From Clostridia bacterium (lineage in GTDB: Bacteria > Bacillota > Clostridia > Christensenellales > CAG-138), in assembly GCA_033813015.1 (NCBI GenBank), contig JAPXSN010000003.1:1-44878 (forward strand): DNA of 44,878 nt, given 5' to 3'. Below the pieces are notes generated by a model that worked only from the letters and a program-made list of their open reading frames with translations, was not told the DNA's origin and did not search any database. This document shows positions 8,665-34,385 of the stretch, in pieces (within the stretch, counting starts at the first letter, position 1; the number at the start of each line of letters is the position of its first letter). Position numbers and translations under genes: made by a program.

Positions 8665-9708
8665 ATGGCGAACAAAAGCGGCGTCAGGCCCTACACTGCG
8701 CAGGAGCTTTCCGCGTTCTGCGCCGAGCTCGCTCTGGTGCTGCGCTCCGGCATGTTCCTGCCGGACGGCATGGCGGCCATGGCCAAGGAAAGCGGGGACC
8801 CGATCATCTCCAAGCTCTGCGCTGCTTTGCAGGGCGGCGGCAAGCTCGCCCCCGCGATGCGCGAAGCGGGCGCTTTTCCGTATTATATGGTGGGCATGGT
8901 GGATCTGGGCGAATCCGCGGGCAAGCTCGAGCAGGTTATGGAGGCGCTCAGCCTCTACTACGAGCGCGAGCACGCCGTGCGAAACCAAATTCGCTCCGCC
9001 GTGTTTTATCCGATGATGCTCGTGGCCATCATGATCGTTGTCATCGCGGTGCTGCTCATCCGGGTGCTGCCGGTGTTCGCCGATGTGTTCGCGGACCTCG
9101 GGGGCGCGGCGGGCGCGGTTTCCCCGGAAATCGCGGGGTTTGGCGAAATCGCAGGCTACCTCGCGCTCGCGCTCGCGGCGCTGATGCTCGCCTTCTGCGT
9201 CCACCTTTCCGTACGGCTACGCTCCGCCTCGGGTTACGCCGCGCTCATGCGCGGCCTCGCGCGCATCGGCTTCACGCGAAAGCTCGCGGAAAAAATCGCC
9301 GCTGGCCGCTTTGCCTTCGCGCTCTCCATGCTGCTCGAGAGCGGATATGCGCTAGACGACGCGCTCGCCAAGCTCCCTTCCATCGTGGATAACGACAGGG
9401 CGGGCGCGCAGATACTCGCCTGCCGCGAGGCCATGGCCCAGGGCGCTTCCTTCTCCAAGGCCGTCGAGGAAAGCGGCCTTTTCCCCGGCATGTATGCGCA
9501 CATACTCGGCGTGGGTTTCCGCGCGGGCGCGCTCGAGCGCGTGAGCGCGAAGGTCGCCGCCATCTACGAGGAGGAGATAGACCGCTCTATCTCCCGGCTC
9601 GTGGGCATCATAGAGCCCGCGCTCGTGGCGATGCTGTGCGTCATCATAGGGGCAATACTGCTCTCGGTGACGCTGCCCTTGATGGACATCATGGCCGGCA
9701 TCGGCTGA
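8665..9708 (+). CDS. type II secretion/type IV pilus platform protein (GspF/PilC family)
   Basis: 347 aa. Two T2SSF-like halves (FPYYMVGMVDLGESAGKLEQVMEALSLYYE and FPGMYAHILGVGFRAGALERVSAKVAAIYEEE), each followed by TM segments. GGGAGG RBS. Confidence 0.85.
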   Translation: MANKSGVRPYTAQELSAFCAELALVLRSGMFLPDGMAAMAKESGDPIISKLCAALQGGGKLAPAMREAGAFPYYMVGMVDLGESAGKLEQVMEALSLYYEREHAVRNQIRSAVFYPMMLVAIMIVVIAVLLIRVLPVFADVFADLGGAAGAVSPEIAGFGEIAGYLALALAALMLAFCVHLSVRLRSASGYAALMRGLARIGFTRKLAEKIAAGRFAFALSMLLESGYALDDALAKLPSIVDNDRAGAQILACREAMAQGASFSKAVEESGLFPGMYAHILGVGFRAGALERVSAKVAAIYEEEIDRSISRLVGIIEPALVAMLCVIIGAILLSVTLPLMDIMAGIG

Positions 9709-9719
9709 TTGGGGCGGTT

Positions 9720-10049
9720 ATGGCGCGGCGCATCGCAAAAAAAAATGCCTTTCTTCCGTGGTGGAGCGGGCTTCTTGTCACGGCGGCGGTCTTCACCATC
9801 TGCCTGACGCTGATGCTCTACGGCATCGAGCGCACGCGTCTGGGCGTGGCGCAAAAGGAGCTTGCGCTCGTCGAGCGCGCGGTCAACCGCGCGGTGGTTT
9901 CCTGCTACGCCATGGAAGGCTTCTACCCGCCGAGCATCGACTATCTCGTTGAAAACTACGGCCTTGAGGTCGACCGAACCAAGTATTATATCCACCACGA
10001 GGCCTTCGCCTCGAACGTCTACCCGACCATCTGGGTCGCGAGGAGGTGA
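9720..10049 (+). CDS. small membrane-anchored protein of the pilus-like operon (function unknown)
   Basis: 109 aa; basic N-terminus (MARRIAKKN) plus one TM segment; no G-F-T-L-x-E prepilin motif; 11 nt after the pilC-like stop. Confidence 0.6.
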   Translation: MARRIAKKNAFLPWWSGLLVTAAVFTICLTLMLYGIERTRLGVAQKELALVERAVNRAVVSCYAMEGFYPPSIDYLVENYGLEVDRTKYYIHHEAFASNVYPTIWVARR

Positions 10050-10054
10050 CGCGC

Positions 10055-10558
10055 ATGCTGCGGGATACGGGACGCGGCGTCACCGCGACGGCGGCTATGC
10101 TGCTGCTGTTCGCGGCCTTCGCGGTGCTGACTTTGCTGCAGGCGCTTTACGGCGCGGCCGTGTACGAGCGCGTGGTCGGCCGCATGGACGACGGATATCA
10201 TCTGCGCGCCTCGCTCTCCTACGTCGCCAACAAGCTCCACGCCCACGACGGCGCGGGCGAGATCGATATCGAGGATGCGGACGGACTCCCCGTGCTCTGC
10301 CTGTGGGATGAGGGAAAACAGGGCGTGACCTGCGTCTACTTCTTCGACGGCGCGCTGATGGAGCAGTATATAGAAGCTTCGACGCGCTTCGAACCCGCTG
10401 CAGGGCAGAGGATTGCCGAGCTTGCGGATTTCACCTTCAGCGAGGCGCAAGGCGGCTTCTCCTTCACGGCCTACACCTTCGAGGGAACCATGCGCACGCT
10501 CGACGTGCGCCTGCGCACGCCCGACGTGCGGCTTCGCGCCGCGAAGGAGGCCCCGTGA
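10055..10558 (+). CDS. pseudopilin-like protein with degenerate class III signal
   Basis: ATG at 10055 sits 8 nt after AGGAGG; an alternative GTG at 10046 overlaps the upstream TGA. N-terminus MLRDTGRG/VTATAAMLLLFAAFAVL resembles a prepilin leader but has Ala, not Glu, at +5. C-terminus carries the tandem DVRLRTP/DVRLRAA. Confidence 0.6.
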   Translation: MLRDTGRGVTATAAMLLLFAAFAVLTLLQALYGAAVYERVVGRMDDGYHLRASLSYVANKLHAHDGAGEIDIEDADGLPVLCLWDEGKQGVTCVYFFDGALMEQYIEASTRFEPAAGQRIAELADFTFSEAQGGFSFTAYTFEGTMRTLDVRLRTPDVRLRAAKEAP

Positions 10559-10968
10559 ACGCGCGCGGCGGCTACGCCTTCCTCGTGGAAATGACAGCGG
10601 TCATCCTTTTCTTCGCGCTCGCGGCGACGGCGGTCATCACGCTTTTCGTCGGCGCGGACAAGCGCGCGAAAGAAGCCGCGGCGCTTTCGGGCGCGGTGCT
10701 CGCGGCGAGCTCCGCCGCGGAGCTCGTGCGCACCTCCGCATCCCCCGAGGCTGACTTCTCGGCGCGCTACGGCGCGACGCAGGCTGAAGGCGGCTATGAG
10801 GCGTGGCTCGACCCGAGCTTTTTGCCGGGCGGGCTTCAGGAATACATCCTCCGGCTCGAGTGCGGGCGAGCCGGAGGAATGTGTGAGATGACGGTGTCCG
10901 TCATGGAAAAGGACGGGGAAGAGTTCTATTCGCTCTCCTGCGCACGCTTCATGGGGGGCGGCTCGTGA
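10555..10968 (+). CDS. pseudopilin-like protein
   Basis: GTGA start/stop overlap with GAAGGAGG upstream. N-terminus MNARGG/YAFLVEMTAVILFFAL has a Gly, an aromatic residue, a Glu and a hydrophobic helix, like a prepilin leader, with one extra residue before the Glu. Confidence 0.6.
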   Translation: MNARGGYAFLVEMTAVILFFALAATAVITLFVGADKRAKEAAALSGAVLAASSAAELVRTSASPEADFSARYGATQAEGGYEAWLDPSFLPGGLQEYILRLECGRAGGMCEMTVSVMEKDGEEFYSLSCARFMGGGS

Positions 10969-11444
10969 GCGCGCGGCCGCCGCTCAACCGGGCGGGTCGC
11001 GGCTTCACCGCCGTGGGAGCGCCGAGCATCATCATCCTGTTCGTGATGCTCTGCCTCGCGTGCTTCGCGGCGCTCTCGCTCGTGAGCGCGAACGCGGAAA
11101 TGCGTCTTGCCATGCGCATGGGCGAGAACACGGCGCGCTGGTATGCGGCCGACGCCGAGGCGCAGCGGCGGCTCGCCCGCCTCGACGAACTGCTAAGCTC
11201 CGGAATCCTCGACGAACCGGACGCGGCGGCAGCGCTCGCGGCCGAAAAGTATGTCTACGATCAAACGCAAGGGGAGGAGACCATCGCCTTCTATACGATG
11301 ATCTCGCACTACACGGCGCTGGAAACCACGGTGCGTCTCGAGGGCGGCGGCTATACTCTCATCCGCAACGCCACGATCGTGACCGGGGATCTGGAATATA
11401 CGCAACTGCCATTTTTATGGGACGGGGTGACGATTTATGATTGA
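10965..11444 (+). CDS. pseudopilin-like protein
   Basis: GTGA overlap. N-terminus ...NRAGRG/FTAVGAPSIIILFVML is a G-F-T start without Glu+5. Confidence 0.6.
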   Translation: MSARPPLNRAGRGFTAVGAPSIIILFVMLCLACFAALSLVSANAEMRLAMRMGENTARWYAADAEAQRRLARLDELLSSGILDEPDAAAALAAEKYVYDQTQGEETIAFYTMISHYTALETTVRLEGGGYTLIRNATIVTGDLEYTQLPFLWDGVTIYD

Positions 11445-12504
11445 AAAACTGCTCATCGAGGCCATCAGCCTCAACGCATCCGATGTGATCATCGCGCCTG
11501 GCTCCCCGCTTGCGTTTAAGGCCGCGGGCGTGGTCAGCCCTTCCGGGGACACGCCGCTGACCCCGGCCAAGACGGAGGCGCTTGTGCGCGAGATCTACCA
11601 GCTCGCCGGAAACCGCAGCATGGAGCGTTTCCAAAAGACGGGCGACGACGATTTCTCCCTCTCCATACCGGGCGTGGGCAGGTTCCGCACAGCCGTATAC
11701 CGCCAAAGGGGCTCCTGCGCGGTCGTGATCCGAATCGTGCGCCACGAGCTGCCCGACCCGGCGCTGCTAAACATCCCCGCGGGCGTCATCAACCTCTTTA
11801 CGGCCAAAAAGGGCCTCGTGCTGATCACCGGCCCGGCAGGCAGCGGCAAATCCACGACGCTTTCGTGCATCGTGGACCGCATCAACAAGACCTTGCCATG
11901 CCATATTATCACCATCGAGGACCCCATTGAGTACCTTTACAAGAACGACAAGAGCATTGTGAGCCAGCGCGAGGTCAGCCAGGATACCGAGGATTTCAAG
12001 AGCGCGCTGCGCTACGCCTTGCGCCAGGCGCCCAACGTGATCCTCGTGGGCGAGATGCGGGATTATGAAACCATCAGCATCGCCATGACCGCGGCGGAGA
12101 CCGGGCAGCTCGTGCTCTCGACGCTGCACACCATCGGCGCGGCCAAAACCGTGGACAGGATCATCGACGTGTTCCCGCCGGGCCAGCAGCAGCAGGTGCG
12201 CGTGCAGCTCTCGATGACGCTCAACGCGGTCGTCTCCCAGCAGCTCATCCCCACCGTGGACGGCGGCGTGACGCCCGCATTTGAGGTGATGATCGCAAAC
12301 CCGGCTGTGCGCAACCTCATCCGCGAGGGCAAGGCGCACCAGATCGACAACGTGATCTACGCGAACCCGGAGACCATGGTTTCCATGGACGCAAGCATCA
12401 CGCAGCTCTACCGCAAGGGGCGCATCAGCTACGACAATGCGGTCAACTTCGCCTCCGATCCCGACTCCATGACAAGGCGCATCGATCGCAACTACGTCAA
12501 CTGA
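11437..12504 (+). CDS. pilT: PilT-family type IV pilus retraction ATPase
   Basis: 355 aa; Walker A GPAGSGKST, Walker B VILVGEMRD, His box STLHT, and the PilT-specific AVRNLIREGKAHQI motif. Overlaps the upstream ORF by 8 nt. Confidence 0.9.
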   Translation: MIEKLLIEAISLNASDVIIAPGSPLAFKAAGVVSPSGDTPLTPAKTEALVREIYQLAGNRSMERFQKTGDDDFSLSIPGVGRFRTAVYRQRGSCAVVIRIVRHELPDPALLNIPAGVINLFTAKKGLVLITGPAGSGKSTTLSCIVDRINKTLPCHIITIEDPIEYLYKNDKSIVSQREVSQDTEDFKSALRYALRQAPNVILVGEMRDYETISIAMTAAETGQLVLSTLHTIGAAKTVDRIIDVFPPGQQQQVRVQLSMTLNAVVSQQLIPTVDGGVTPAFEVMIANPAVRNLIREGKAHQIDNVIYANPETMVSMDASITQLYRKGRISYDNAVNFASDPDSMTRRIDRNYVN

Positions 12505-13681: not shown

Positions 13682-13738
13682 GTAGGGGCCGATATGGAAT
13701 CGGCCCCTACGGATTTCACCCGATTTTTAATTGTCAAT
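13682..13738 (-). repeat. intergenic heptad/GC-hairpin element, copy G (tail-to-tail with copy C)
   Basis: Read on the minus strand: ATTGACA ATTAAAAATCGGGTGAAATCC GTAGGGGCCGAT-TCCAT-ATCGGCCCCTAC. The hairpin core CCGATTCCATATCG is shared with copy B. The TGA stop of the 342-aa adhesin (13734-13736) lies inside the heptad. Confidence 0.7.
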
Positions 13739-14762
13739 TCTTCCTGCGGCTGCGCACGAGCACGAAGCCCGCAAGGCTCGCGGAAAGGCCGAGCAGTAGC
13801 ATGGCGTAGCCCAAATAGTTGACGTCGCCCGTCTGCGGCGCTTCGATCGGAATCTGCGGCGTCGGGATGCCCTCGAAAACGGCCGTGATGGTCAGCTGGC
13901 GATTCGTGGTGACCAGGACATACGGCAGTGTCTCCTCATAGGGATCGCCCGGCCCCGGGGTTACGACCTCGCTGGTGACCGTCACCCGGGCTTTATCCCA
14001 CATGAGCGTGCTGGGTTCCCACCCGATGAATCGGTAGCCCGGCAGCACCGGATCGCCCGCCATGATCACGGGCTTGGTTTCGGAATTGACGACGTCATCC
14101 GGCCAGAAGACCACGCCGGGCTGCTTGTTCTGATGGTAGAGGGTGTAGGTCGCCCTTTCATGGACCGCCATCTGGGTGAAGAAGCCTGTGGTAGTGCCCT
14201 CGAAGAAGCGTACGAGGCGCCGCTCGTCACCTCTGCCCTGATAATCCTTGCTCATGAGCGTATATTCGGGCGTGGTCCAGCCGACGAAATTATAGCCGGG
14301 CATCGCCACCACCGCGCTTGGGATGATGGGGCTGGTCGCATGCTCATCCGGGGGATCATCGGGCTGTCCGTCAACCGGGGGCGTGATGTCGTATTTGAGG
14401 ATGTAATGATCCTCCACGGCAATCCACTGTGCGGTAACGGTCCGCGCGGAACAGTCGTTTAGCAAAAAAATGGTCATCGTATCACCGGGCTCGCCGAGCA
14501 GGCTTCTGTAATTCCAGCAAAGCAGCGCATATCCGGGTCTGGAGCAATCCGCCTCGGTGGGTAAGCTGAATGTAATTCTTGCTGAAACGCCGCTTCCGGT
14601 CACGGGTACCTCTATCGACGCCGGTGTCGGAGAGCCGCCGTTCGCGTTAAAGTGAACCGTCACCGTCGTTGGCGCGGCCAACGCAACTCCCCCGAGACTC
14701 AGCACGAGCGCGAGGACGACGGCCAGCGCCGCCAACTTTTTGAAGATGCTTCTGGTTTTCAT
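13734..14762 (-). CDS. cell-wall-anchored surface protein with Listeria-Bacteroides (Flg_new/InlB B-repeat type) repeats
   Basis: Signal peptide MKTRSIFKKLAALAVVLALVLSLGGVALA. Three G-Y-x-[FL]-x-[GC]-W repeat cores (PGYALLCW, PGYNFVGW, PGYRFIGW). C-terminus APQTGD plus a hydrophobic stretch plus RSRRKN is a sortase-type sorting signal. GAGGGGGA RBS. Confidence 0.85.
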   Translation of the reverse strand: MKTRSIFKKLAALAVVLALVLSLGGVALAAPTTVTVHFNANGGSPTPASIEVPVTGSGVSARITFSLPTEADCSRPGYALLCWNYRSLLGEPGDTMTIFLLNDCSARTVTAQWIAVEDHYILKYDITPPVDGQPDDPPDEHATSPIIPSAVVAMPGYNFVGWTTPEYTLMSKDYQGRGDERRLVRFFEGTTTGFFTQMAVHERATYTLYHQNKQPGVVFWPDDVVNSETKPVIMAGDPVLPGYRFIGWEPSTLMWDKARVTVTSEVVTPGPGDPYEETLPYVLVTTNRQLTITAVFEGIPTPQIPIEAPQTGDVNYLGYAMLLLGLSASLAGFVLVRSRRKN

Positions 14763-15134: not shown

Positions 15135-18100
15135 TCAATCCTCTTCCTCGATGGCGCGCACCTTCTTGCGGATGAACAGACTCGCCGTGAAGATGACCGC
15201 GATCAGCGCAAACGCCGCAACGAAGATGATCAAGCCGGTGTTGCCGGTCTGCGGCGTGCCAAGCGGGGGCTTGGTCGGCGTGGGCGAGGGATCGGGCGTC
15301 GGGTCGGGGCCGCCCTCTTTAACGAACTTCGCCGTCACGGCGAGCGTGTAGGTCGTGGTTTTGAGAATGTAGGGCTCGCCCTCCGTCGGGGTGACGATCT
15401 GGGTGCTGACGCTGACTGCGGCCGTGGACCAGTCGAGCGTGTTGGGCCTCCAACCCTTGAAGATGTAGCCGGGCAGGTAGGGGGCTCCGGCAAGCTCGGG
15501 CGGGGTCAGGGAGTCGACCACGTCGCCGGGCCAGTTGGTGACGCCGCTGACGTAGCCCTGGTAAAGCAGGGTGTAGCGGGCCTCCTCGACGATCTCCATG
15601 CCGGTGAAGGAGCCGTAGGCCGTGCCTTCATATAGAGTCGTGATGATCTCGACGCCGTCGACGATCTCGCTCGTTTCACCCGTCTTCTCCCACGCCGGAG
15701 CGGACCAGCCGGAGAAGTTATAGCCGTCCAGGCTCACCACGGCGCTCGGGGAAATGGGACTCGCGCCCTCTTCATCCGGCGGGTTCGCGGGCTGCCCGGG
15801 CACGCTGCCGAGTATGGCGTAATGCAGCGTATAGTGTTCCCGCTCATTTATCGGGATGAACTGCGCCACGGTGGACGCCTCGAGGTAGTGCGTGTAGATA
15901 AGGCCGTCGGGCGAGATTTCCAGGCGGGAGCCATTCTCCGCATAGTCGCTCCCGCTGATGCTCGCGGGACTCCAGCCCGTGAAGCGGTGGCCGTCGAGCG
16001 AGGCGGTCTCGTCCCCGATGGTCTGCGCGGAGGTTCCGCTCTTCATATCGGGCAGCACGGCGCCCGCGGGGCCGGTGAAGGTGAGCTCGTAGATGTACAC
16101 ATGCTCTATTTTGCCGAAGCTGCCCGTGACGTCGATCTTCTTGGTGTAGGTCGTAACCCACTGGTCGAGCGTTTCGTCAAAGCGGGTTTCGCCTTCCACG
16201 GCCGGGGTGCCGTCCCAATCGAGGGAGCCGGGGTTCCAGCCGCCGAACAACTTGCCGTCCTCGCTGGGCTCGGGCGCGATGGTCGGGAGCGAGGGCGGGT
16301 TGGTGACGTTGACGTCGAGGTGGTCATAGCTGCTTGAGCCGCCGTGTACGGTGTAGTCCACGATGTAGACGTATTCGTTGATGCAGCCCTTCTTGACGAG
16401 CCTGCCCTCGATGGTCGCGGAGTAGACCGTGGTCTTGACGAAGCGGTTGTCCGAGTTGAGCGTATAGCCCAGCACCGCAGCCCATCCGATATCCGCGGCG
16501 GGCGCGCCGTTCTGCTTCCAGCCTTCGAAGGCGTAGCCGAGCTTCGCGGGTGTCAGCGTCGTCAGCGCGGGTTCGCTCGTCTGGTCGGCGAGGTCATTGG
16601 GCCATGTGCCCGGATCGGCGAGGTCCTTGTCGCCGGTGTAGGTGAGGTTCCAGAGTTCTTTCTCAACGATGTCGTTCATCGTGAAGGAACCCGTGACCTC
16701 TGCGGAATAGACGCGGATGGTGATGTACCTATCCCCAACATCGTCGTAGCGGTAGTTGATGCCTGCCGTGCCCCAGTCGAGCGTCGCGTCGCTCACGCCG
16801 GCGCCGTTCTGCGTCCAGCCGGAGAAGGAGTGGCCGTCGAGCGTCGGGTTGCCCGCAAGGCTCGGCTTGCTCGCGGAGCCGCTCACGTTCGCGGGCGGAT
16901 TGCCTATGGTAAGGTTCCTGCCTTCGAGGTCCTTGTACGGCTGACCCGCGATCACATAGGTGAGGTTATAGATGGTTTCCTCGCCGCAGTTCATCGTGAA
17001 GTCGCCCACGACGGCCGCGCTGTACGTCAAAACTTTGATGAATCTGTCCGCAGCCTCGTCGTAGCGGTAGCTGACTGCCGCGCTGCCCCAGTTAAGCGTC
17101 GCGTCATCCACAGCGGAGCCGCTCTGCTTCCAGCCTGTGAAGGTATGGCCCTGCACCGAAGGCGCGCCTGCGAGGGCGGGCTTCGCCGCAGCACCCGTCA
17201 CGTCCGCGGGGCGATTGTTGATGGTGAGGTTGATCCCGTGCGGCGCCTGGTACGGCTCGTTGGCGAACGAGTAGGAGAGGTTGTACAGAGCCTCCTCCTC
17301 GCCCATGTTGCGCGCGAAGCTACCCGTGAGGTGCGCCGTGTAGATGGTCACGTCTATGGTGCGGTTGTGCGCGCTGTCAAAGTCCTGCCGCGTGCTCAGG
17401 GTCCAGACGATGTCCGCGCTCGCGCCAATCGCGGAGCCGCCCTGCGCCCAGCCGCCGAAGGTATGGCCCTTCATCGAGGGGCTTCCGCCGAGGGCGGGCA
17501 TGGTCGGGGAGGCGACGACGTTGGCGGGCATGTTGCTCGCGCTGAGTATCGCGCCGTCGGTCGGGTCGGTATACGGGCCGCCCGCGATGCCGTAGCTGAG
17601 GCTGTATTCGGTCGCCTGGCCGTGCTCATTTTCAGTCACGGTCGCGGAGGCGCCGAGCATATAGCGGGAATACTGCACGAACACCCACACGCCGTCGCGC
17701 TTCTCGAGCTTCTCCTCAAAGGTGGCGGCGGAGTTGCCCCAGGGCAGCATCTGGCCTTCGCCGTAAAACTCATCGGGCTGGCCGAGCGTGACGCCCCACC
17801 CCTTGATGGAGTAGCCCGGCGGTACCGTGGGCAGCGCCTGTGCGCTGAGCGGGGTCGAACCCCTTTGCTGCGCGTCGTACGCACCTATCGTTGCTCCGGT
17901 GTTGTTGGTCACATGGTAATCCACGATGTACTCTTCCACGCTCAGGATGTTCTTGCTGAGCGCGCCGTTGATGGCGAGCTTGTAGCGGATCGTATGCACC
18001 GCGCCCACGCCGGGCTGCGTGCTCGGAACCGTGCCCTCGGAGATGATGCTGAAGTCGCCCTGCTCGAGCGGCGGCGTCTGATCCCAGCCGCCGAAGCTGT

Positions 18101-20429
18101 AGCCGTTGGGGATTATGGGCGAGCCCGCCACGCCCGTGGGCATGCTCGTCACATCCGTGACGCTGTAGCCGAGCATTTCGGTCTTCTCGGCGGTGCCGTC
18201 GCGGGTGACCCAGTATTCGACCGTGTAGAACTTCTTTTCAATGTCCTCGCACTTGACGAAGCGGCCTTCAACGGTGATGGTGCGGTAGATCTTGGTGATG
18301 AATATGCCGCTCACGGGATCGTACACCTCGGGCTGGCTCGTCACCACGACGTAGCTCGCGTTCCAGTTGAAAGCGGACACCGGGCTGCCGCCGATTTTCC
18401 AGCCGCTGAAGTCGTAGCCGTTCTTCGTCGCGTCTGCGGCGAGGGTCGGCGCGCTCTCAACGTTGGCAACATCGTTGGGCCAGGTGGTCGCGATGTCCTT
18501 ATCGCCTGTGTAATTCACGCTGTAGAAGGTCTTTGCGCAGACCTGCTTGGTCAGCGTGCCCGTGAGCGTAATCTTATAGTAATTCTTGATGACGTTGGGC
18601 GCGCCCACGCCGCCGGGCACGGTCACGGTCCGGTCGAAGTCGTAGTTCCCGAAGGCGAGCGCGGTGAGCTTGACCGTCGTGCCCTGCTTGAACCAGCCCG
18701 CGAAGGTATAGCCGTCCTGCGAAATGCCGGCGTTGACCGTTGTGGGCATCGGGGTGGCCTCGACGTAGGCGTTGACGATCTCGCCCGCATCGGCATAGTC
18801 GCCGTCGAGATTGAGGTCGATCTTGTAGGTGACGGAGAAGTACTTCTCGACGACGTCCTCGCACTTGGTGAAAGTGCCGTTGACCGTGATAGTCTTGTGC
18901 GTCAAGGTGACGAACTTCTTGAGCCCCGCGTCGTAATACTCGGGGTCGACCACGACGTTCACATAGCCCGCGCTCCAGTTGAGCGAGGCGGGGCTCCAGC
19001 CGTTGAAGGTGTAACCGTTCTTGGTCGCGTCGGCCGCGATGGAAGGCGCGCTCGAAGCATTGTAGACATTGCTCGGCCAGAAGGTCGCGCCCGCGCTTTC
19101 CCCGGTGTAGAGCACCGTATAATCGGTCTTCGCGCAGACCTGCTTGGTCAGCGTGCCCGTGAGCGTGATGGAATAGTAGTTCTTGATGATCTTCGCGGTG
19201 CCGGGGCCCGCGGGGATAGTCTGCGTGCGGCCGGCATCGAGGTCGTAGTTCCCGAAGGCGAGCGCGGTGAGCTTGACCGTCGTGCCCTGCTTGAACCAGC
19301 CCGCGAAGGTGTAGCCGTCCTGCGAAATGCCGGCGTTGACCGTCGTGGGCATGCTCGCAACGTCGACATGGGCGAGCGTCGTTTCACCCGCGTCGGCATA
19401 GTCGCCGTCGAGGTTGAGGTCGACCTTATAGGTGACGGAGTAATATTTTTCGATGATGTCCTGCAGCGCCGCGAACGAGCCGTGGACATTGGCGATGTAC
19501 TCGGTCGTGCGGATGTAGGAATCCGTGGCGGCGTCGTAGGTGATGACGGGCTCGGCCGCGCTCTTTGTGTAGTTTTCGGCAACGAGGGTCATCAGGTTCG
19601 CGCCGGCGCCGTTGAGCTTCCACCCGTCGAAGCTCGCGCCTACCTTGCTGGCAGTGCCGAGCGTTAGGACAGGAGCCGCCTGCTTATCGACGTCCGCCGG
19701 CCAGATTACGCCGGTCATGTCGGAGGGCTTACCTATATAATGGAGAGTATACACGCTGCGCTCGACGTAGGGCTTGGCCTCCCAGCGGGCATAGAACGTG
19801 TAGTTCTTGTCGACCTTGGACGGCCATGTGGTCACCTTCGTGTAGGTGGAGCCATCGTAGGTATACCAGCCGAGGAACACATAGGCCTGATCGGGGTCAG
19901 TCACCGGGATCGCCGGGAATGCACTCGAGGGCGAGTTTTTGAGATACGCGATGTCGGCATAGCCGAGCGTAGAGCTCGTCTTGCCGATCTGCCCGCCCTT
20001 GCCGTCCACGAGCACGGTCTTGAAGGTCACATCGTAGGTGACGCAGTCGGATTTCCACTGTGCCACGATGTGTATCGTGGGCCAGCTCTTGCTTGTGCTT
20101 GCGCGCGTGAGCGGTATGCTCACCGTCGAGCCCACGGCGGCGTTGCTCTTGAAGAGCGTGCCCGTCTTGCTGCCGACATACACGTTGAAGCCTGTGAACG
20201 TGTATCCGCTGCGCTCGGGCGCGGCCTGGAGCGTGTGATTGGCCGTACCGCTCGTGCCGTTGTTCATCGTTACGTCGTAAGTTTTGTAAGCGGTCTCCGA
20301 GGCGGTTTTGTAATAGTAAACCGTCGTCTCACTGCTCGTGCAGGCGAGCGCCGGGCTCGCCGCCGAGAGCACCATCGCCAGCGTCATGACGAGCGCCATG
20401 AGCCTGGCCAAGCCGATCCTCTTCATCAT
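15135..20429 (-). CDS. giant cell-wall-anchored repeat adhesin (Flg_new/InlB B-repeat type modules)
   Basis: 1764 aa. Signal peptide MMKRIGLARLMALVMTLAMVLSAASPALA. About 17 G-[YH]-x-F-x-G-W repeat cores by eye (e.g. DGYTFAGW, KGHTFGGW, DGHSFSGW), one per ~100 aa. Pro/Thr-rich stalk GGPDPTPDPSPTPTKPP, then TPQTGN plus TM plus RKKVR sorting signal. GAGGGGGA RBS. Confidence 0.9.
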   Translation of the reverse strand: MMKRIGLARLMALVMTLAMVLSAASPALACTSSETTVYYYKTASETAYKTYDVTMNNGTSGTANHTLQAAPERSGYTFTGFNVYVGSKTGTLFKSNAAVGSTVSIPLTRASTSKSWPTIHIVAQWKSDCVTYDVTFKTVLVDGKGGQIGKTSSTLGYADIAYLKNSPSSAFPAIPVTDPDQAYVFLGWYTYDGSTYTKVTTWPSKVDKNYTFYARWEAKPYVERSVYTLHYIGKPSDMTGVIWPADVDKQAAPVLTLGTASKVGASFDGWKLNGAGANLMTLVAENYTKSAAEPVITYDAATDSYIRTTEYIANVHGSFAALQDIIEKYYSVTYKVDLNLDGDYADAGETTLAHVDVASMPTTVNAGISQDGYTFAGWFKQGTTVKLTALAFGNYDLDAGRTQTIPAGPGTAKIIKNYYSITLTGTLTKQVCAKTDYTVLYTGESAGATFWPSNVYNASSAPSIAADATKNGYTFNGWSPASLNWSAGYVNVVVDPEYYDAGLKKFVTLTHKTITVNGTFTKCEDVVEKYFSVTYKIDLNLDGDYADAGEIVNAYVEATPMPTTVNAGISQDGYTFAGWFKQGTTVKLTALAFGNYDFDRTVTVPGGVGAPNVIKNYYKITLTGTLTKQVCAKTFYSVNYTGDKDIATTWPNDVANVESAPTLAADATKNGYDFSGWKIGGSPVSAFNWNASYVVVTSQPEVYDPVSGIFITKIYRTITVEGRFVKCEDIEKKFYTVEYWVTRDGTAEKTEMLGYSVTDVTSMPTGVAGSPIIPNGYSFGGWDQTPPLEQGDFSIISEGTVPSTQPGVGAVHTIRYKLAINGALSKNILSVEEYIVDYHVTNNTGATIGAYDAQQRGSTPLSAQALPTVPPGYSIKGWGVTLGQPDEFYGEGQMLPWGNSAATFEEKLEKRDGVWVFVQYSRYMLGASATVTENEHGQATEYSLSYGIAGGPYTDPTDGAILSASNMPANVVASPTMPALGGSPSMKGHTFGGWAQGGSAIGASADIVWTLSTRQDFDSAHNRTIDVTIYTAHLTGSFARNMGEEEALYNLSYSFANEPYQAPHGINLTINNRPADVTGAAAKPALAGAPSVQGHTFTGWKQSGSAVDDATLNWGSAAVSYRYDEAADRFIKVLTYSAAVVGDFTMNCGEETIYNLTYVIAGQPYKDLEGRNLTIGNPPANVSGSASKPSLAGNPTLDGHSFSGWTQNGAGVSDATLDWGTAGINYRYDDVGDRYITIRVYSAEVTGSFTMNDIVEKELWNLTYTGDKDLADPGTWPNDLADQTSEPALTTLTPAKLGYAFEGWKQNGAPAADIGWAAVLGYTLNSDNRFVKTTVYSATIEGRLVKKGCINEYVYIVDYTVHGGSSSYDHLDVNVTNPPSLPTIAPEPSEDGKLFGGWNPGSLDWDGTPAVEGETRFDETLDQWVTTYTKKIDVTGSFGKIEHVYIYELTFTGPAGAVLPDMKSGTSAQTIGDETASLDGHRFTGWSPASISGSDYAENGSRLEISPDGLIYTHYLEASTVAQFIPINEREHYTLHYAILGSVPGQPANPPDEEGASPISPSAVVSLDGYNFSGWSAPAWEKTGETSEIVDGVEIITTLYEGTAYGSFTGMEIVEEARYTLLYQGYVSGVTNWPGDVVDSLTPPELAGAPYLPGYIFKGWRPNTLDWSTAAVSVSTQIVTPTEGEPYILKTTTYTLAVTAKFVKEGGPDPTPDPSPTPTKPPLGTPQTGNTGLIIFVAAFALIAVIFTASLFIRKKVRAIEEED
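18245..19455 (-). repeat. internal tandem duplication (~600 nt / ~200 aa unit, 2 copies) inside the giant adhesin gene
   Basis: Units start EKYYSVTYKVDLNLDGDYADAGE... and EKYFSVTYKIDLNLDGDYADAGE.... The DNA core 18639-18749 vs 19242-19352 differs at only 2 positions over ~110 nt by eye (a 69-nt identical run); offset 603 nt. Boundaries are approximate. Confidence 0.85.
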
Positions 20430-20510
20430 CGTATTTTCCCCCTCGATGTATTTGCATCTGCGTTTGCGTCCGTTATGGGTATATATATCCGATCCTGCTG
20501 ACTCTGTGAT

Positions 20511-20548
20511 GAAATCATAACAACAGGGAGTTACAGCACAGTTACAAA
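20511..20548 (-). promoter_or_regulatory. candidate activator-dependent promoter of the giant adhesin gene
   Basis: Minus strand reads TTTGTAAC-TGTGCT-GTAACT-CCCTGTT-GTTATGATTTC, with the same spacing as 14841-14878 (GTAAC repeats 11 nt apart, 10 nt to the TATGAT -10 box). It would give a ~75-nt leader. Confidence 0.5.
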
Positions 20549-20725
20549 AGGCTGTTTCCGCCGCCTTTTTTCTATATTTTGTAAACTAATTTGGTTTATA
20601 CAGCATAAAGCGCGCAGCGCACGCCGAAAAGCCTCGCTTAACGCCGAAATGTCCGCGTCTGCCGCCGCAAAGGAGCGGAACTTTCGGCCAAAAACGCCTT
20701 ATTTCACGTGGGTTACACTTTATGC

Positions 20726-20755
20726 TTGACAATATTGTGTAATTGTAATTATAAT
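20726..20755 (+). promoter_or_regulatory. sigma-A type promoter of the riboswitch/transglutaminase transcript
   Basis: TTGACA (20726-20731), 18-nt AT-rich spacer, TATAAT (20750-20755). Confidence 0.65.
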
Positions 20756-20789
20756 GGTGCCGGAATCGAACATCCGCTCGGAAGATCCC

Positions 20790-20872
20790 GACGAACCGGC
20801 ACACCCGTCCAAAGGCGGGGTCGCAAAGCTAGAGGGCCTAAACGCGAAAGCGCATGGCAGCCAGTTGCCGAA
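20790..20872 (+). promoter_or_regulatory. GEMM-I (c-di-GMP-I class) riboswitch-like aptamer
   Basis: CGGCACA CCCGUC CAAA GGCGGG GUCGCAAAGCU AGAG GGCCUAAAC GCGAAAGCGC AUGGCAGCCAGUUGCCG. It matches, block by block, the conserved GGCAAAC / hairpin / ACGCAAAGC / GGCCUAAAC / GUUNCCG pattern of GEMM-I as I recall it from V. cholerae Vc2. CGGCA and UGCCG can close P1. Located in the 5' leader of the CDS at 20958. Boundaries are approximate. Confidence 0.75.
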
Positions 20873-20957
20873 ACGAGAGCTTTTTCTTCGTTTTCGGGGC
20901 ACTTGGGCGGCGCACGCTATCCCGGCGCACCGCCTCGCGAAAAGAAAGGATAAAAAC

Positions 20958-21860
20958 GTGAAAAAGCACTTCCGACACGGCGCGCTTGCCCTCGCGCTCC
21001 TTTTGGCGCTGAGCGCCCTTGCGTCCCCGGCAGCCGCCGCGGGGGGGTCTCTCGCCTCAAGTCTGCTCTCGCCGCCAAGCGGGAGCGTGGGCATAGACAC
21101 ATCAACGGCCTCGCTGGGCTACGTCGTCCTGTTCTACGACGACGGCACTTCCGCCTCGATGAAGGCGGGCTTGAGCTTCAACGGCGGGAGCTGGTCCTAC
21201 TACGAGTGCAAAATGGGCAAAACGCTTTCGCTCACGCTCACGGGCGGCAGCGGCAGCTATTGCGCGGCTCTGTTCAAAAAGGTCGGCGCGAGCTATGTGA
21301 CCGTAGCGCAGGAGAGCTTCACGGCGCTCGTCGACAGTTCCGTCGTGCCCGCCGCAAGCGCGGCCGCGTCGGCGTATCCGCAGTATCTCAGGAGCGTTTC
21401 TGAAATTTCTTTCACGACAAGCGGCTCGGTCGCCAAAAAAGCGGCCTCGCTGTGCAAGGATTTAAAGAGCGATCAGGCAAAGATACGCGCCATTTACAAC
21501 TACATCGCCAAATACTTCAAATACGATTACGACTTTGCAAACAAGGTCATCTCCGGTCAGATCACGACCTACACGCCGAGCCCCGCGGGCATCCTTTCCA
21601 ACAAGAAGGGCGTATGCTACGACTTCGCCTCCCTCTTCGCCGCCATGTGCCGCAGCCAGGGCATCCCGTGCAAGCTCGTCAAGGGCTACAGCACGAAGAT
21701 CAACGGCTACCACGCCTGGAACAGCGTTTACGATTCCAAGACCGAAAAATGGTATACCGTCGATTTGACGATGGCCGTCTGCAAGGGCAACAAAACGGCT
21801 TCCCGCTTCTCGCGCTGCTATATGAGCGACAGGTATTACACGCCTCACGAAAGCGTCTGA
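20958..21860 (+). CDS. secreted transglutaminase-like (papain-fold Cys-His-Asp) domain protein
   Basis: GTG start after AAAGGA gives the signal peptide VKKHFRHGALALALLLALSALASPAAAA; the upstream part of ORF 20754 is the riboswitch leader. Core motifs: KKGVCYDFASLFAAMCR (Cys), GYHAWNSV (His), WYTVD (Asp). Confidence 0.8.
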   Translation: MKKHFRHGALALALLLALSALASPAAAAGGSLASSLLSPPSGSVGIDTSTASLGYVVLFYDDGTSASMKAGLSFNGGSWSYYECKMGKTLSLTLTGGSGSYCAALFKKVGASYVTVAQESFTALVDSSVVPAASAAASAYPQYLRSVSEISFTTSGSVAKKAASLCKDLKSDQAKIRAIYNYIAKYFKYDYDFANKVISGQITTYTPSPAGILSNKKGVCYDFASLFAAMCRSQGIPCKLVKGYSTKINGYHAWNSVYDSKTEKWYTVDLTMAVCKGNKTASRFSRCYMSDRYYTPHESV

Positions 21861-21893: not shown

Positions 21894-21930
21894 GGGCGCG
21901 CGGGGAAAGATTCCCTTCGCGCCCTTTTTT
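21894..21930 (+). terminator. rho-independent terminator
   Basis: GGGCGCG...CGCGCCC stem (with an inner GGG/CCC) followed by TTTTTT. Confidence 0.75.
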
Positions 21931-21963: not shown

Positions 21964-21992
21964 TTGCGAAGACGGGTTTGCGCGTGTATAAT
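21964..21992 (+). promoter_or_regulatory. sigma-A type promoter of the zinc-ribbon gene
   Basis: TTGCGA, 17-nt spacer, TATAAT (21987-21992). The leader contains ATTGAC ATTGACA (22023-22035) just before the GGAGG RBS. Confidence 0.5.
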
Positions 21993-22048: not shown

Positions 22049-22516
22049 ATGCCAACTTGCACCAGTTGTGGCCAGCAATTCGACGATGGCGTGCGCTTCT
22101 GCCCGGCCTGCGGCTCGCCCGCCCAAGAGCAGGCGCAGGCGAACGCCGACCAGGGAAGCTATCAGCAGACCTACCAGCAGCAAAGCTACCAGCAGCCTGT
22201 CTACCAGCAGCCGTCGGTTCAACCGGGCGCCGTCTTCACGGGCGACAAGACCATGGCAATACTCGCGGTGGTCTTCCCGATCCTGTTCTTCCTGCCCCTC
22301 GTCGCGGGCCCGAAGGACGAGTTCAACAAGTTCTGGGCGAATCAGGCACTGCTGCTGTTCCTTCTGGGCATCATTGCCAGCATCACTGCGGCCATTATCA
22401 TCGGCATCTTGATCGGCATCGCGGAGTTCGTGTTCTGGATCATCGCGCTCATAGCCGTCATCAAGGGCGAAATGAAGCCCCTGCCTCTTATCGGCGGTAT
22501 CAAGATCATCCAGTAA
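22049..22516 (+). CDS. zinc-ribbon domain membrane protein with Gln/Tyr-rich linker
   Basis: CTSCG...CPACG zinc ribbon, a YQQ-rich low-complexity linker, then about three TM helices. GGAGG RBS. Confidence 0.75.
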   Translation: MPTCTSCGQQFDDGVRFCPACGSPAQEQAQANADQGSYQQTYQQQSYQQPVYQQPSVQPGAVFTGDKTMAILAVVFPILFFLPLVAGPKDEFNKFWANQALLLFLLGIIASITAAIIIGILIGIAEFVFWIIALIAVIKGEMKPLPLIGGIKIIQ

Positions 22517-25037: not shown

Positions 25038-25113
25038 TGGCGCGCCCAGCAGGATTTGAACCTGCGACCTACCGGTTCGTAGCCGGGCACTCTATCCGCT
25101 GAGCTATGGGCGC
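25038..25113 (-). tRNA. tRNA-Arg (anticodon ACG), CCA encoded
   Basis: Reverse complement folds by hand as GCGCCCA-TA-GCTC-AGCGGATA-GAGT-G-CCCGG-CTACGAA-CCGGT-AGGTC-GCAGG-TTCAAAT-CCTGC-TGGGCGC-G-CCA (76 nt). Closely resembles E. coli tRNA-Arg(ACG). Confidence 0.9.
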
Positions 25114-32308: not shown

Positions 32309-33090
32309 ACTGCTTTGACACGCACGCGCATCTGTGCGACGAAAAATTCGATTCCGACCGCGGCGAGCTGATCGCTTCCCTGCCCGAATCGGGCGTGGCG
32401 CTTTGCATCAACGTCGCCTGCGAGGCGGACGAGTTCGGCGCGAGCGTGGAGCTGACGCGCCGTTATCCCTTCCTCTACGGAGCCTACGGCATCCACCCGC
32501 ACGTCGCCTCAAATCCCGGCGAAAATTGGGAAGATAAGCTTCGCGCCGCGCTCGCGGACAAAAAAGCCGTAAGCCTCGGTGAGATAGGTCTCGATTATCA
32601 CTACGATTTTTCCGAAAGGCCCGACCAGAAGCGCGTTTTCGTGCGCCAGCTCGAGATGGCCAGGGAGCTGAACCTTCCCGTCCAGCTCCACATTCGCGAG
32701 GCGTTCGGCGACTGCATGGATGTCCTGCGCAGCCACCGCGACGGCCTTCGCGGCGAGATGCACTGCTATTCCGGCTCCATCGAAACCGCGCGGGAGTGCC
32801 TTGACCTCGGCCTCTACATCGCGCTCGGCGGCGCGGTTACGTTCGAAAACGCCCGCCGCCTAATCGAGGTCGCGGCCTACATACCGGACGATCGCCTGCT
32901 CGTTGAAACCGACTGTCCGTACCTGACGCCCGTACCGTTTCGCGGCCGCCGCAACGACCCCTCGAAGATCGTCCACACAATCCGGCGGCTCGCGGAGATC
33001 CGCAATACGACGGCGGAGCATGTGGCGCGTATGACGTTGGAGAATGGGAAAAGGCTGTACGGGATAACAGAGCAGCCTGTCACATATTAG
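32305..33090 (+). CDS. tatD: TatD family metal-dependent hydrolase/DNase
   Basis: The TTG start overlaps the GNAT stop (TTGA). FDTHAHL, EIGLDYHY, VQLHIREA, ETDCPYLTPVPFRG. Confidence 0.85.
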   Translation: MNCFDTHAHLCDEKFDSDRGELIASLPESGVALCINVACEADEFGASVELTRRYPFLYGAYGIHPHVASNPGENWEDKLRAALADKKAVSLGEIGLDYHYDFSERPDQKRVFVRQLEMARELNLPVQLHIREAFGDCMDVLRSHRDGLRGEMHCYSGSIETARECLDLGLYIALGGAVTFENARRLIEVAAYIPDDRLLVETDCPYLTPVPFRGRRNDPSKIVHTIRRLAEIRNTTAEHVARMTLENGKRLYGITEQPVTY

Positions 33091-34385
33091 TCCGCCTTTA
33101 TATCGCGCTCAAGCTCCGTTCGAATGTACCGATCGAAAGCGTTTATGTCCAGCCGGAACACATGGGCATTGCCCGACGTTCGTTTCATAATTGGCAATCG
33201 GTCGCTTGTAATCATTTCGTGAACGAGCCTCCTTGTTTTGGCTAGTCCGACTTCAGAGTATGCCTTGAGCGTGGAGATATCGAAATAGTTGTCTTCGTCC
33301 GAGAACAATGCCGCCTGAACGAAGACGAACAGCAGCCCTTTTTTCGTTTCAACATCTTTTTCCTTTCCCCCAAATAACAGCGATTTTAAACTGTTCAACC
33401 TGCTTTCATAGTATATGAGTTTATCGTTTCCTTCCCTGACCTGCTCCTCTACCCGTTGCGCCGCGCTAAGCAAAATTTCAAGAAACGCAATGACAAAAGG
33501 CGTTAAGTCCCCCGCGTTTTTGCCTTCGTTACAGATAGAAAAAGCCTTGTAGTATTCAGCCTTTTTTTTCTTAAATTCCGCCGAGGCGGCAAGTCCTAAA
33601 AGCTTGTTCACAGTTTGGTAAAGCAGCCCGCTCATGACAAATCGGTTTATTCTTCCGTTGCCGTCATAAAACGGGTGCGCATAAGAAAACAAATAGTGAA
33701 AAACGGCAATTCGAATCAGTACGGGCAAATCTTCGCTGTTCAGTATTCTAATGGATTGCTCGATATGCTCTATGAGTTTTTCTTCCGGACCGATTCCCTG
33801 ATGGACGTGGTCTCCGTGTGGATTATCTATATAAACGGTTCCTTTTCTGAATATCGTCCCATCGGGAATATCTTCTGCGTCAATCTCATCCAGAACAACA
33901 TCATCGTAGATCTTCCTGACATCCACGGATGAATTCAGGGATATCTTAATTTCATCATTCAGCAGCATAAGGTATTTTTTTATCATGCCCTCAAATCTTT
34001 TTCCGCCGGATTTCCTGTTTGCCCGGAGCGCGTCGATTGTATTGTTTATTTCTCTTTTTGTACTGTGTATATTTTCTATTTCATTCGTGTTTTGAATTTC
34101 GTCTATGAGGCATTGGTTGATGTAATGGCTTTTTGCCCCCTCGGGAAAGCGCGAAAAAATGGAGTTAATTTCAGCGGCACACATACATATTTTCTCTATC
34201 AAAACACTCTGCTCGTAGGTGCACGCCAAAAACGCTTCGTGCTCTTCCTGCGCACCAAATTCCTTTATAGAAAGAGGAAATCTGATCGTGCCAAATGCCT
34301 GCCGCCTCTTTTTGACCTCATCCGCATAAGCCTTCGGCTTGGCGGAATATAAGTAAAACTTGCTTTTCAGCAATTCGTACCTCAT
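33087..34385 (-). CDS. Fic family protein (AMPylase-type fold) with N-terminal inhibitory-helix motif
   Basis: 432 aa; Fic motif HPFYDGNGRINR. The upstream TNEIEN fits the [ST]xxxE[GN] auto-inhibition motif. The gene is conspicuously AT-rich compared with its flanks. Confidence 0.85.
   Translation of the reverse strand: MRYELLKSKFYLYSAKPKAYADEVKKRRQAFGTIRFPLSIKEFGAQEEHEAFLACTYEQSVLIEKICMCAAEINSIFSRFPEGAKSHYINQCLIDEIQNTNEIENIHSTKREINNTIDALRANRKSGGKRFEGMIKKYLMLLNDEIKISLNSSVDVRKIYDDVVLDEIDAEDIPDGTIFRKGTVYIDNPHGDHVHQGIGPEEKLIEHIEQSIRILNSEDLPVLIRIAVFHYLFSYAHPFYDGNGRINRFVMSGLLYQTVNKLLGLAASAEFKKKKAEYYKAFSICNEGKNAGDLTPFVIAFLEILLSAAQRVEEQVREGNDKLIYYESRLNSLKSLLFGGKEKDVETKKGLLFVFVQAALFSDEDNYFDISTLKAYSEVGLAKTRRLVHEMITSDRLPIMKRTSGNAHVFRLDINAFDRYIRTELERDIKAD

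Follow-up and report, generated by a model that had tools for sequence, protein, structure and literature searches.

Which way does cyclic di-GMP (c-di-GMP) drive a secreted transglutaminase-like enzyme encoded head-to-head with a giant surface adhesin, and on what does that enzyme act? The locus lies in a 44,878-nt stretch of DNA from a Clostridia bacterium of the Christensenellales (contig JAPXSN010000003.1; hereafter the window), where the enzyme gene (20958..21860, + strand) follows a c-di-GMP-I riboswitch aptamer. We favour a c-di-GMP-I OFF switch on a secreted enzyme that acts on sortase-dependent adhesins, a reading to which we give a probability of about 0.6.

The leader begins with a sigma-70-type promoter (20726..20755, +) that matches the consensus at 12 of 12 positions, with TTGACA at 20726-20731, an 18-nt spacer and TATAAT at 20750-20755. 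Both hexamers are invariant among the leaders of L081, L084, L001, L002 and L003, five of the related loci described below. Behind the promoter, the Rfam covariance model RF01051 matches an aptamer (20788..20872, +) over its full length (model positions 1-87) with 67.9 bits against a gathering threshold of 35 (E 2.6e-11). This bears out the original prediction, which had recognized the TTGACA-18-TATAAT promoter and, by a segment-by-segment reading that agrees with the sequence, a GEMM-I aptamer. A family-specific covariance model (R1), built from the window aptamer and 22 aptamers that Rfam confirmed in the first 14 loci encoding enzyme homologues, scores the window aptamer at 89.7 bits. Among these 23 aptamers, 97.2% of the cells in the aptamer helices are paired, double changes occur in 10 of 20 pairs, and the covariation is 0.382, whereas shuffles give 0.156 (0/500) and slid registers no more than 0.064, so that homologous leaders support the two aptamer hairpins. 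The original prediction had drawn P1 as CGGCA...UGCCG; this conflicts with the consensus structure, in which G20799-C20800 pair with G20823-C20824 of UCGCAAAG (the GCAAAG junction), a pairing invariant in the 23 aptamers. The aptamer sequence is nearly identical among the window, L081 and L085, despite a diverged downstream leader. The window carries a genuine c-di-GMP-I riboswitch aptamer in a 5' leader. A permissive Rfam scan of the whole window found no second riboswitch, even at E<=1.

The characterized RF01051 riboswitches Vc2 of Vibrio cholerae and Cd1 of Clostridioides difficile have the same two-hairpin aptamer and ACGCAAAGC junction as the window, the same G at the G20 position and the same location in a 5' leader behind the promoter. 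The tetraloop is CAAA or AAAA in the subfamily of the window, whereas it is GAAA in known c-di-GMP-I riboswitches. Based on the Rfam consensus alignment, the ligand-contact positions are G20798, A20825 (in the GCAAAG junction) and C20868, which we take to be G20, A47 and C92 in Vc2 numbering. Given the G at 20798, the GCAAAG junction and C20868, we read the aptamer as probably specific for c-di-GMP and not for 3'3'-cyclic GMP-AMP (3'3'-cGAMP). A G at the G20 position is reportedly the c-di-GMP-selective state in Vc2 and Geobacter work, and in Geobacter its replacement by A is said to move specificity towards 3'3'-cGAMP. Elsewhere in the family, A replaces G at the G20-equivalent (column 11 of our alignment A2) in L008 (3502-3586), L009 (7899-7983) and L004 (3975-4061), and likewise in two aptamers of L006 (7812-7898 and 9007-9097). 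Within tandem pairs, such a change may allow two ligands, or two affinities, to be sensed.

Translation of the enzyme gene almost certainly starts at the GTG at 20958, because the homologues all have starts that line up with the N-terminus MKKHFRHGALALALLL and a Shine-Dalgarno (SD) sequence, GAAAGGA, lies 8 nt upstream (SD and start codon at 20944..20960, +, in frame with the open reading frame (ORF)); the mechanical ORF start is at 20754. A typical signal peptide can be read from the sequence of the 300-aa product, which matches Pfam PF01841 (Transglut_core, clan Peptidase_CA; 1.2e-21, 77.5 bits against a cutoff of 23). Cys220, His252 and Asp269 are invariant in 92 homologues, in agreement with the earlier description of a signal-peptide-bearing Cys-His-Asp transglutaminase-like protein. 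An AlphaFold2 model (pLDDT 88.4) comprises an N-terminal helix, an FN3-like beta-sandwich (residues about 44-123) and the transglutaminase core (about 136-300). In Foldseek searches its best matches in the PDB are 3isr (a putative cysteine protease of Cytophaga), TG2 and other animal transglutaminases, and TglA of Streptococcus pyogenes, with weaker matches to LapG and the pseudomurein endoisopeptidase PeiP. Like the enzyme, 3isr, 4xz7 (a Streptococcus suis transglutaminase) and 9crn (TglA) have a Transglut_core and a Cys-His-Asp triad (profile E 5e-10 to 6e-7; Foldseek E 2e-8 to 4e-6; 15-18% identity), but none is known to be riboswitch-controlled, and their substrates, where known, differ. 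No peptidoglycan-binding domain was found in the enzyme by Pfam and profile searches, and no experimental work on the enzyme family or on TglA was found in the literature searched. The gene is monocistronic, since an intrinsic terminator read from the sequence (GGGCGCG...CGCGCCC followed by T6; 21894..21930, +) separates it from a downstream gene with its own promoter (TTGCGA-17-TATAAT, 21964-21992). That gene (22049-22516, +), directly 3' of the enzyme gene, encodes a 155-aa zinc-ribbon and MamF_MmsF-like membrane protein that is conserved in every close relative (L003 and L081-88), including L088, which has no adhesin.

How general is this arrangement? We sampled 80 genome loci encoding enzyme homologues from Bacillota, together with close relatives from metagenomes. 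R1 identified 113 aptamers in 84 loci plus the window, and at least one aptamer lies directly upstream of the homologue in 58 of the 80 loci, with two or three in 31. These counts show that, in Bacillota, the enzyme family is a core target of c-di-GMP-I riboswitches and is widely conserved as such, behind one, two or three aptamers. In L067, a triple tandem (7564-7877; aptamers at 7564-7650, 7691-7776 and 7801-7877) directly precedes the homologue, with linkers of 40 and 24 nt. The tandem form is also present in Paenibacillus and Brevibacillus strains (L020, L036, L041). The pairing of riboswitch and enzyme is not new, because Weinberg et al. listed a 'transglutaminase-like cysteine protease' downstream of GEMM in 2007 (PMC1950547) and a 2025 survey found COG1305 enriched after tandem c-di-GMP-I riboswitches in Bacillota (PMC12452182). 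The initial suggestion of an undescribed type of locus therefore does not stand as far as this pairing is concerned. The RNA class, protein family and phylum of those catalogues are the same as here, and their tandems correspond to the 31 loci above. However, both list only the association, and we did not find in them the links to sortase, LPXTG proteins and a type IV pilus-like apparatus or the contrast between OFF and ON designs presented below. As far as we found, these links, this contrast and the recognition of the window as a single-aptamer derivative are new here.

Aligned with the tandem leaders of L084, L001 and L002, the window promoter and aptamer fall on aptamer 1. A single aptamer, 85-120 nt from the start codon, is present in the window, in L081-83 (82% identity) and in L085 (74%), and two aptamers are present in L084, L086, L087, L001, L002 and L088. 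A covariance search with filters off found no remnant of an aptamer 2 in the 85-nt spacer of the window (nothing better than E=1), and the impression of a half-aptamer at about 20898-20943 was not supported by this search. Because relatives have tandems, the window aligns with aptamer 1 and no second remnant is found, the window aptamer is the promoter-proximal (gene-distal) member of an ancestral tandem, and the gene-proximal member was lost in the window lineage.

The direction of the switch is read from how the aptamers connect to the gene. The distance from the end of the gene-proximal aptamer to the start codon is 10-22 nt (mode 13) in 53 loci, where the terminal CCGAA of the aptamer runs directly into AGGAG or GGGAG. 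The sequence just 5' of this aptamer is complementary to the SD region. In a fixed register across 50 distinct sequences, this helix between the 5' flank and the SD is 74.3% paired versus 61.1% when shuffled (0/500), has a covariation of 0.466 versus 0.267 in shuffles (0/500) and 0.15-0.26 in slid registers, and shows changes on both sides in 11 of 12 pairs. P1 is the helix stabilized by ligand binding in the c-di-GMP-I class. Since the helix of 5' flank and SD extends P1, the simplest reading is that c-di-GMP would occlude the ribosome-binding site.

A second version of the design, a helix followed by a U-run, is found 3' of distal aptamers in 20+ loci. In the window, the 5' strand GGAAGAUCCCG (20780..20790, +) pairs at 9 of 11 positions with CGAGAGCUUUU (20874-20884), forming an extended P1 that encloses the aptamer and is followed by UCUUCGUUUUC, a U-rich tract reaching 20894. 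Together, the 3' strand and the tract (20874..20894, +) are a terminator-like element closing the whole aptamer, whose function as a terminator we infer. Equivalent helices are kept with compensatory changes in L085, L001/L086, L002, L088 and L007. The subfamily pattern is 5'-CGGA(A/G)..AUCCCGA with 3'-(A/C)CGAG..CUUUU; in L002, CCCG/CGAG becomes CUUG/CAAG, in L001/L086 GAGCAUC is paired with GGGGCUU, and in L085 GAAGAUC/GAGAGCUUUU becomes GAAGAAUC/GAGGUUUUUUU, where an inserted A is matched by GAGGUUUUUUU. Because the extended P1 runs straight into the U-rich tract, the bound aptamer would itself be the terminator, and c-di-GMP would turn the gene OFF. Across the family, the pairing of the 5' flank with either the SD or a U-run as an extended P1, with covariation, argues that c-di-GMP switches the enzyme OFF, and points to a compact design in which the ligand-stabilized P1 doubles as SD-sequestering helix or terminator stem. 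Known c-di-GMP-I riboswitches, in contrast, use a separate terminator.

Other pairings in the leaders were considered as switch elements. The imperfect hairpin CCGAAACGA...UCGUUUUCGG (20868..20897, +), to which the original prediction had assigned the switching role, exists, but it is confined to the window and L081-83 (where its sequence is identical), is absent from L085 and is not favoured thermodynamically in folds, and we rejected it as a switch. Analogous anti-P1 hairpins, seen by eye in L001 and L084, were not built on because they would form after the U-run has been transcribed. An alternative apo pairing of GAUCCCG with CGGGGUC was dropped, as it is not conserved in L007.

What the enzyme acts on is approached through its neighbours, for which all ORFs of the 80 loci were clustered and the largest clusters annotated. 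Of the 80 loci, 38 contain a sortase gene, closest to class C, and in 34 it sits right next to the homologue; LPXTG proteins are often encoded before or after it. This lends independent support to the tie between the enzyme and sortase-anchored proteins proposed from the window. In Paenibacillus, the genes run PMT-GT2-GtrA-sortase-(two aptamers)-enzyme. A type IV pilus-like cluster (T2SSF, DUF4860, T2SSE) borders the enzyme gene in 16 of the 80 loci, and in about 8 the enzyme gene is the first of a T2SSF-DUF4860-T2SSE operon, which suggests a functional link between the enzyme and the pilus-like apparatus.

Aptamers also precede LPXTG genes near the homologues. There, the 3' strand of the aptamer (..CAGCUGCCAG..) is at the same time the 5' arm of a perfect terminator (CUGGCAGCUUUUU), and this is therefore a classical ON design. 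It occurs in L035 (4564-4653), L032 (3666-3756), L059 (4545-4638) and L040 (11903-11985), and twice in L061 (2761-2858 and 5603-5704); the L008 aptamer at 3502-3586 has it as well, with a downstream gene that lacks a recognized sorting signal. The design matches that of the Bacillus thuringiensis riboswitch Bc2, an ON-type switch controlling the collagen adhesin cap/cbpA (PMC4933901, PMC7423583). It is not found upstream of the enzyme gene, where the aptamers of the same loci are of the opposite, OFF type, nor does it occur in the window. As c-di-GMP rises, a single RNA class thus appears, in several genomes, to turn adhesin and sortase ON but the enzyme OFF.

Divergent from the enzyme gene, the window encodes a 1764-aa adhesin (15135..20429, -) with Listeria-Bacteroides (Flg_new) repeats (PF09479, 4.5e-28; TIGR02543), ending in TPQTG, a hydrophobic stretch and RKK (...IRKK), as the original prediction of a head-to-head PQTG adhesin had stated. 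A second Flg_new protein of 342 aa (13734..14762, -) ends in APQTG...RSRRKN and has a weak Gram_pos_anchor match. Both have the signal peptide, (x)PxTG motif, hydrophobic segment and basic tail of sortase-anchored proteins. Homologues of the divergent adhesin occupy the same position in L001, L003, L081-84, L086 and L087, so the gene pair persists in relatives as distant as about 64% identity. Only the clade of the window has the divergent Flg_new adhesin, and L088 (55% identity) is without it. The 1764-aa protein contains long, near-identical internal duplications (for example, YSVTYKVDLNLDGDYADAGE...TLTGTLTKQVCAKT occurs twice), and adhesin length in L081-87 ranges from 1188 to 2970 aa, consistent with expansion and contraction of repeats. 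The intergenic region between enzyme and adhesin totals 528 nt. Its long adhesin-upstream part (20430-20725) lacks both an Rfam match and a consensus promoter of - orientation, and contains a bidirectional hairpin, AAAAGGC...GCCTTTTTT, at about 20549-20577.

The window itself has a type IV pilus-like cluster (8665-12504, +), made up of T2SSF (8665-9708), small pilin-like ORFs, DUF4860 (10046-10558), an ORF without assignment (10965-11444) and T2SSE (11437-12504). The window ORFs that were scanned, up to about 36.4 kb, include no c-di-GMP turnover gene. In L084, a dCache-GGDEF gene is located about 9 kb upstream of the enzyme homologue. Other features of the window are a tRNA gene whose anticodon loop reads ACG (25041-25113, -; Rfam 65.9 bits), probably for Arg, and a gene for a Fic-domain protein (33087-34385, -). 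Housekeeping genes (PfkB kinase, methyltransferases, MetRS, TatD) make up the rest of the right half as far as it was scanned (about 36.4 kb).

Two known systems resemble this locus. In C. difficile, the class I riboswitch Cdi1_12 controls zmpI, encoding the protease PPEP-1, and the adhesins CD2831 and CD3246 are under class II ON riboswitches (PMC6200980). The original prediction had drawn this analogy, and it holds in that, in both cases, the gene of a secreted enzyme follows a class I riboswitch and has genes for sortase-anchored adhesins beside it; the opposite polarity of adhesin and enzyme riboswitches is likewise seen in several related loci. However, PPEP-1 is a zinc metalloprotease, whereas both Pfam and the predicted structure give a Cys-His-Asp transglutaminase core here and not the metalloprotease fold with HEXXH. 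The adhesin riboswitches of related loci are also class I rather than class II, and the window adhesin has none. The analogy missed LapG, a transglutaminase-like cysteine protease that is under c-di-GMP control and sets free LapA, a giant adhesin (PMC3032545); LapG, LapD and LapA are known from Pseudomonas fluorescens, Legionella and Vibrio (PMC3032545, PMC6890996). LapG is the closer analogue in enzyme fold. Like it, the enzyme here is a putatively c-di-GMP-controlled, exported Cys-His-Asp protein encoded beside a giant repeat adhesin, with activity predicted at low c-di-GMP. Membership in the LapG family (BTLCP; PF06035, MEROPS C93) was rejected, as there is no PF06035 match at E<=0.01, and the fold similarity to LapG (4fgp) is weak (Foldseek E 9.5e-4, TM-scores 0.29/0.44). 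Control here would be by an RNA switch on expression, whereas LapG is sequestered by LapD, and the setting is a Gram-positive wall with sortase anchoring in place of a type I secretion retention module.

In the model that we favour, binding of c-di-GMP would stabilize the extended P1 (20780-20790 with 20874-20884) around the aptamer and into the U-rich tract, and the bound aptamer would act as an intrinsic terminator, turning the gene OFF. In most relatives, it is the SD that lies within the extended P1 of the gene-proximal aptamer, and the OFF switch would be translational. The enzyme would then be made at low c-di-GMP and would act on sortase-dependent surface proteins, here the two PQTG adhesins, most likely releasing or remodelling them through cysteine protease or isopeptidase activity. 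It would be a functional analogue of LapG/LapA and of PPEP-1 (ZmpI)/CD2831 while being a member of neither family. Release of adhesins is plausible and is backed by the conserved gene context and by the apparent opposite polarity of the switches; the enzyme might just as well act on the sortase anchor, on peptidoglycan or on pilus components.

Several observations weigh against this model. Both the OFF polarity and the response to the ligand are predictions from sequence. The extended P1 of the window is weak, with two mismatches among its 11 positions and a duplex energy no better than that of shuffled flanks (z about 0). RNAfold of the leader fails to separate bound and unbound states, and SD accessibility is 0.31 versus 0.36 in modelled bound versus free leaders. 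A terminator stem around an 85-nt aptamer is unusual, with no experimentally characterized precedent found in the literature, and the role of the 85 nt of leader 3' of the proposed terminator remains unexplained by the model. The extended-P1 terminator is the weakest link of the OFF argument for the window itself. Transglutaminase-fold enzymes include proteases, cross-linkers, deamidases and amidases, and the structure matches do not discriminate among these. Type IV pilus-like genes lie beside the homologue in 12 of 21 aptamer-less loci, a possible different partner. In the window, no riboswitch (including c-di-GMP-II) was found in the adhesin 5' region at E<=1, so that the ON/OFF pairing of adhesin and enzyme seen in other loci is absent, and tblastn with 38 sortases found no sortase gene.

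The weakness of the extended P1 leaves room for other readings of the leader. The opposite polarity, in which c-di-GMP induces a true transglutaminase that cross-links or stabilizes adhesins or biofilm matrix during sessile growth, would suit the top structure matches, which include TG2 and factor XIII with their common layout of beta-sandwich plus core. Both polarities are known among class I riboswitches, related loci have the ON type, and the overlap of hairpin 20868-20897 with the 3' end of the aptamer would permit a scheme of alternative pairing. We nevertheless consider this unlikely, because no terminator or SD-sequestering helix that the ligand could disrupt is found 3' of the window aptamer, the family design places the SD or U-run inside the ligand-stabilized P1, with covariation, and the ON platform before adhesin genes is clearly distinct from the enzyme platform. 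The weak helix is also what a relic would show: after loss of the gene-proximal aptamer that sequestered the ribosome-binding site, the leader would no longer regulate and the gene would be constitutive, and the single aptamer of the window, L081-83 and L085 does stand 85-120 nt from the start codon, whereas in about 53 loci the aptamer abuts the SD. Against such decay, the intact aptamer retains every conserved position and scores 67.9 bits, it is near-identical in the window, L081 and L085 while the downstream leader diverged, and the helix and U-run are maintained through compensatory change in L085. These observations together indicate purifying selection and make a relic highly improbable. 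Least credible of all is that the aptamer senses 3'3'-cGAMP as a GEMM-Ib riboswitch. This belongs to the same structural class, and five aptamers in the sample (L008a, L009b, L006a, L004c and L006b) have A at the G20 position, but the window has G at 20798 and its top Rfam family is RF01051.

With the OFF switch as the preferred reading of the leader, the target of the enzyme could still lie elsewhere than in the adhesins, in peptidoglycan, in the sortase anchor bond (as an 'anti-sortase' or endoisopeptidase) or in the type IV pilus-like apparatus at 8665-12504. Adhesin partners are entirely different from locus to locus, and what stays constant beside the homologue is the sortase (adjacent in 34 of 80); the Foldseek match to PeiP would fit an endoisopeptidase. 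The pilus-like apparatus is favoured by the loci in which the homologue opens the T2SSF-DUF4860-T2SSE operon (about 8), by such genes in 12 of the 21 riboswitch-less loci and by the presence of the same cluster in the window. However, in the clade of the window the constant neighbour is the Flg_new adhesin, neither sortase nor pilus gene, and the enzyme has no detected peptidoglycan-binding domain; we regard a target other than the adhesins as a real but less likely possibility.

For the biology of these organisms, the riboswitch itself is ordinary, and the value of the locus lies in the enzyme family behind it. Few genes in Bacillota are under riboswitch control as consistently as those of this family, which have up to three aptamers in series and have been in the catalogues since 2007. 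The putative double use of P1 as SD-sequestering helix or terminator stem would be a compact design worth biochemical study. The constant sortase and LPXTG neighbourhood, together with an OFF platform on the enzyme and an ON platform on adhesin genes, leads to the hypothesis that Gram-positive bacteria without a Lap system release sortase-anchored adhesins as c-di-GMP falls. We tentatively propose that the family with an FN3 domain and a transglutaminase core might be a Gram-positive counterpart of LapG, a secreted enzyme with cysteine protease or isopeptidase activity that c-di-GMP represses through OFF-type class I riboswitches and that detaches sortase-anchored adhesins, possibly by attacking an anchor or stalk common to all sortase substrates. 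The adhesin and sortase genes beside it would be induced by class I riboswitches of the ON type. If this were true, one RNA class would set a toggle between attachment and detachment across Clostridia and Bacilli.

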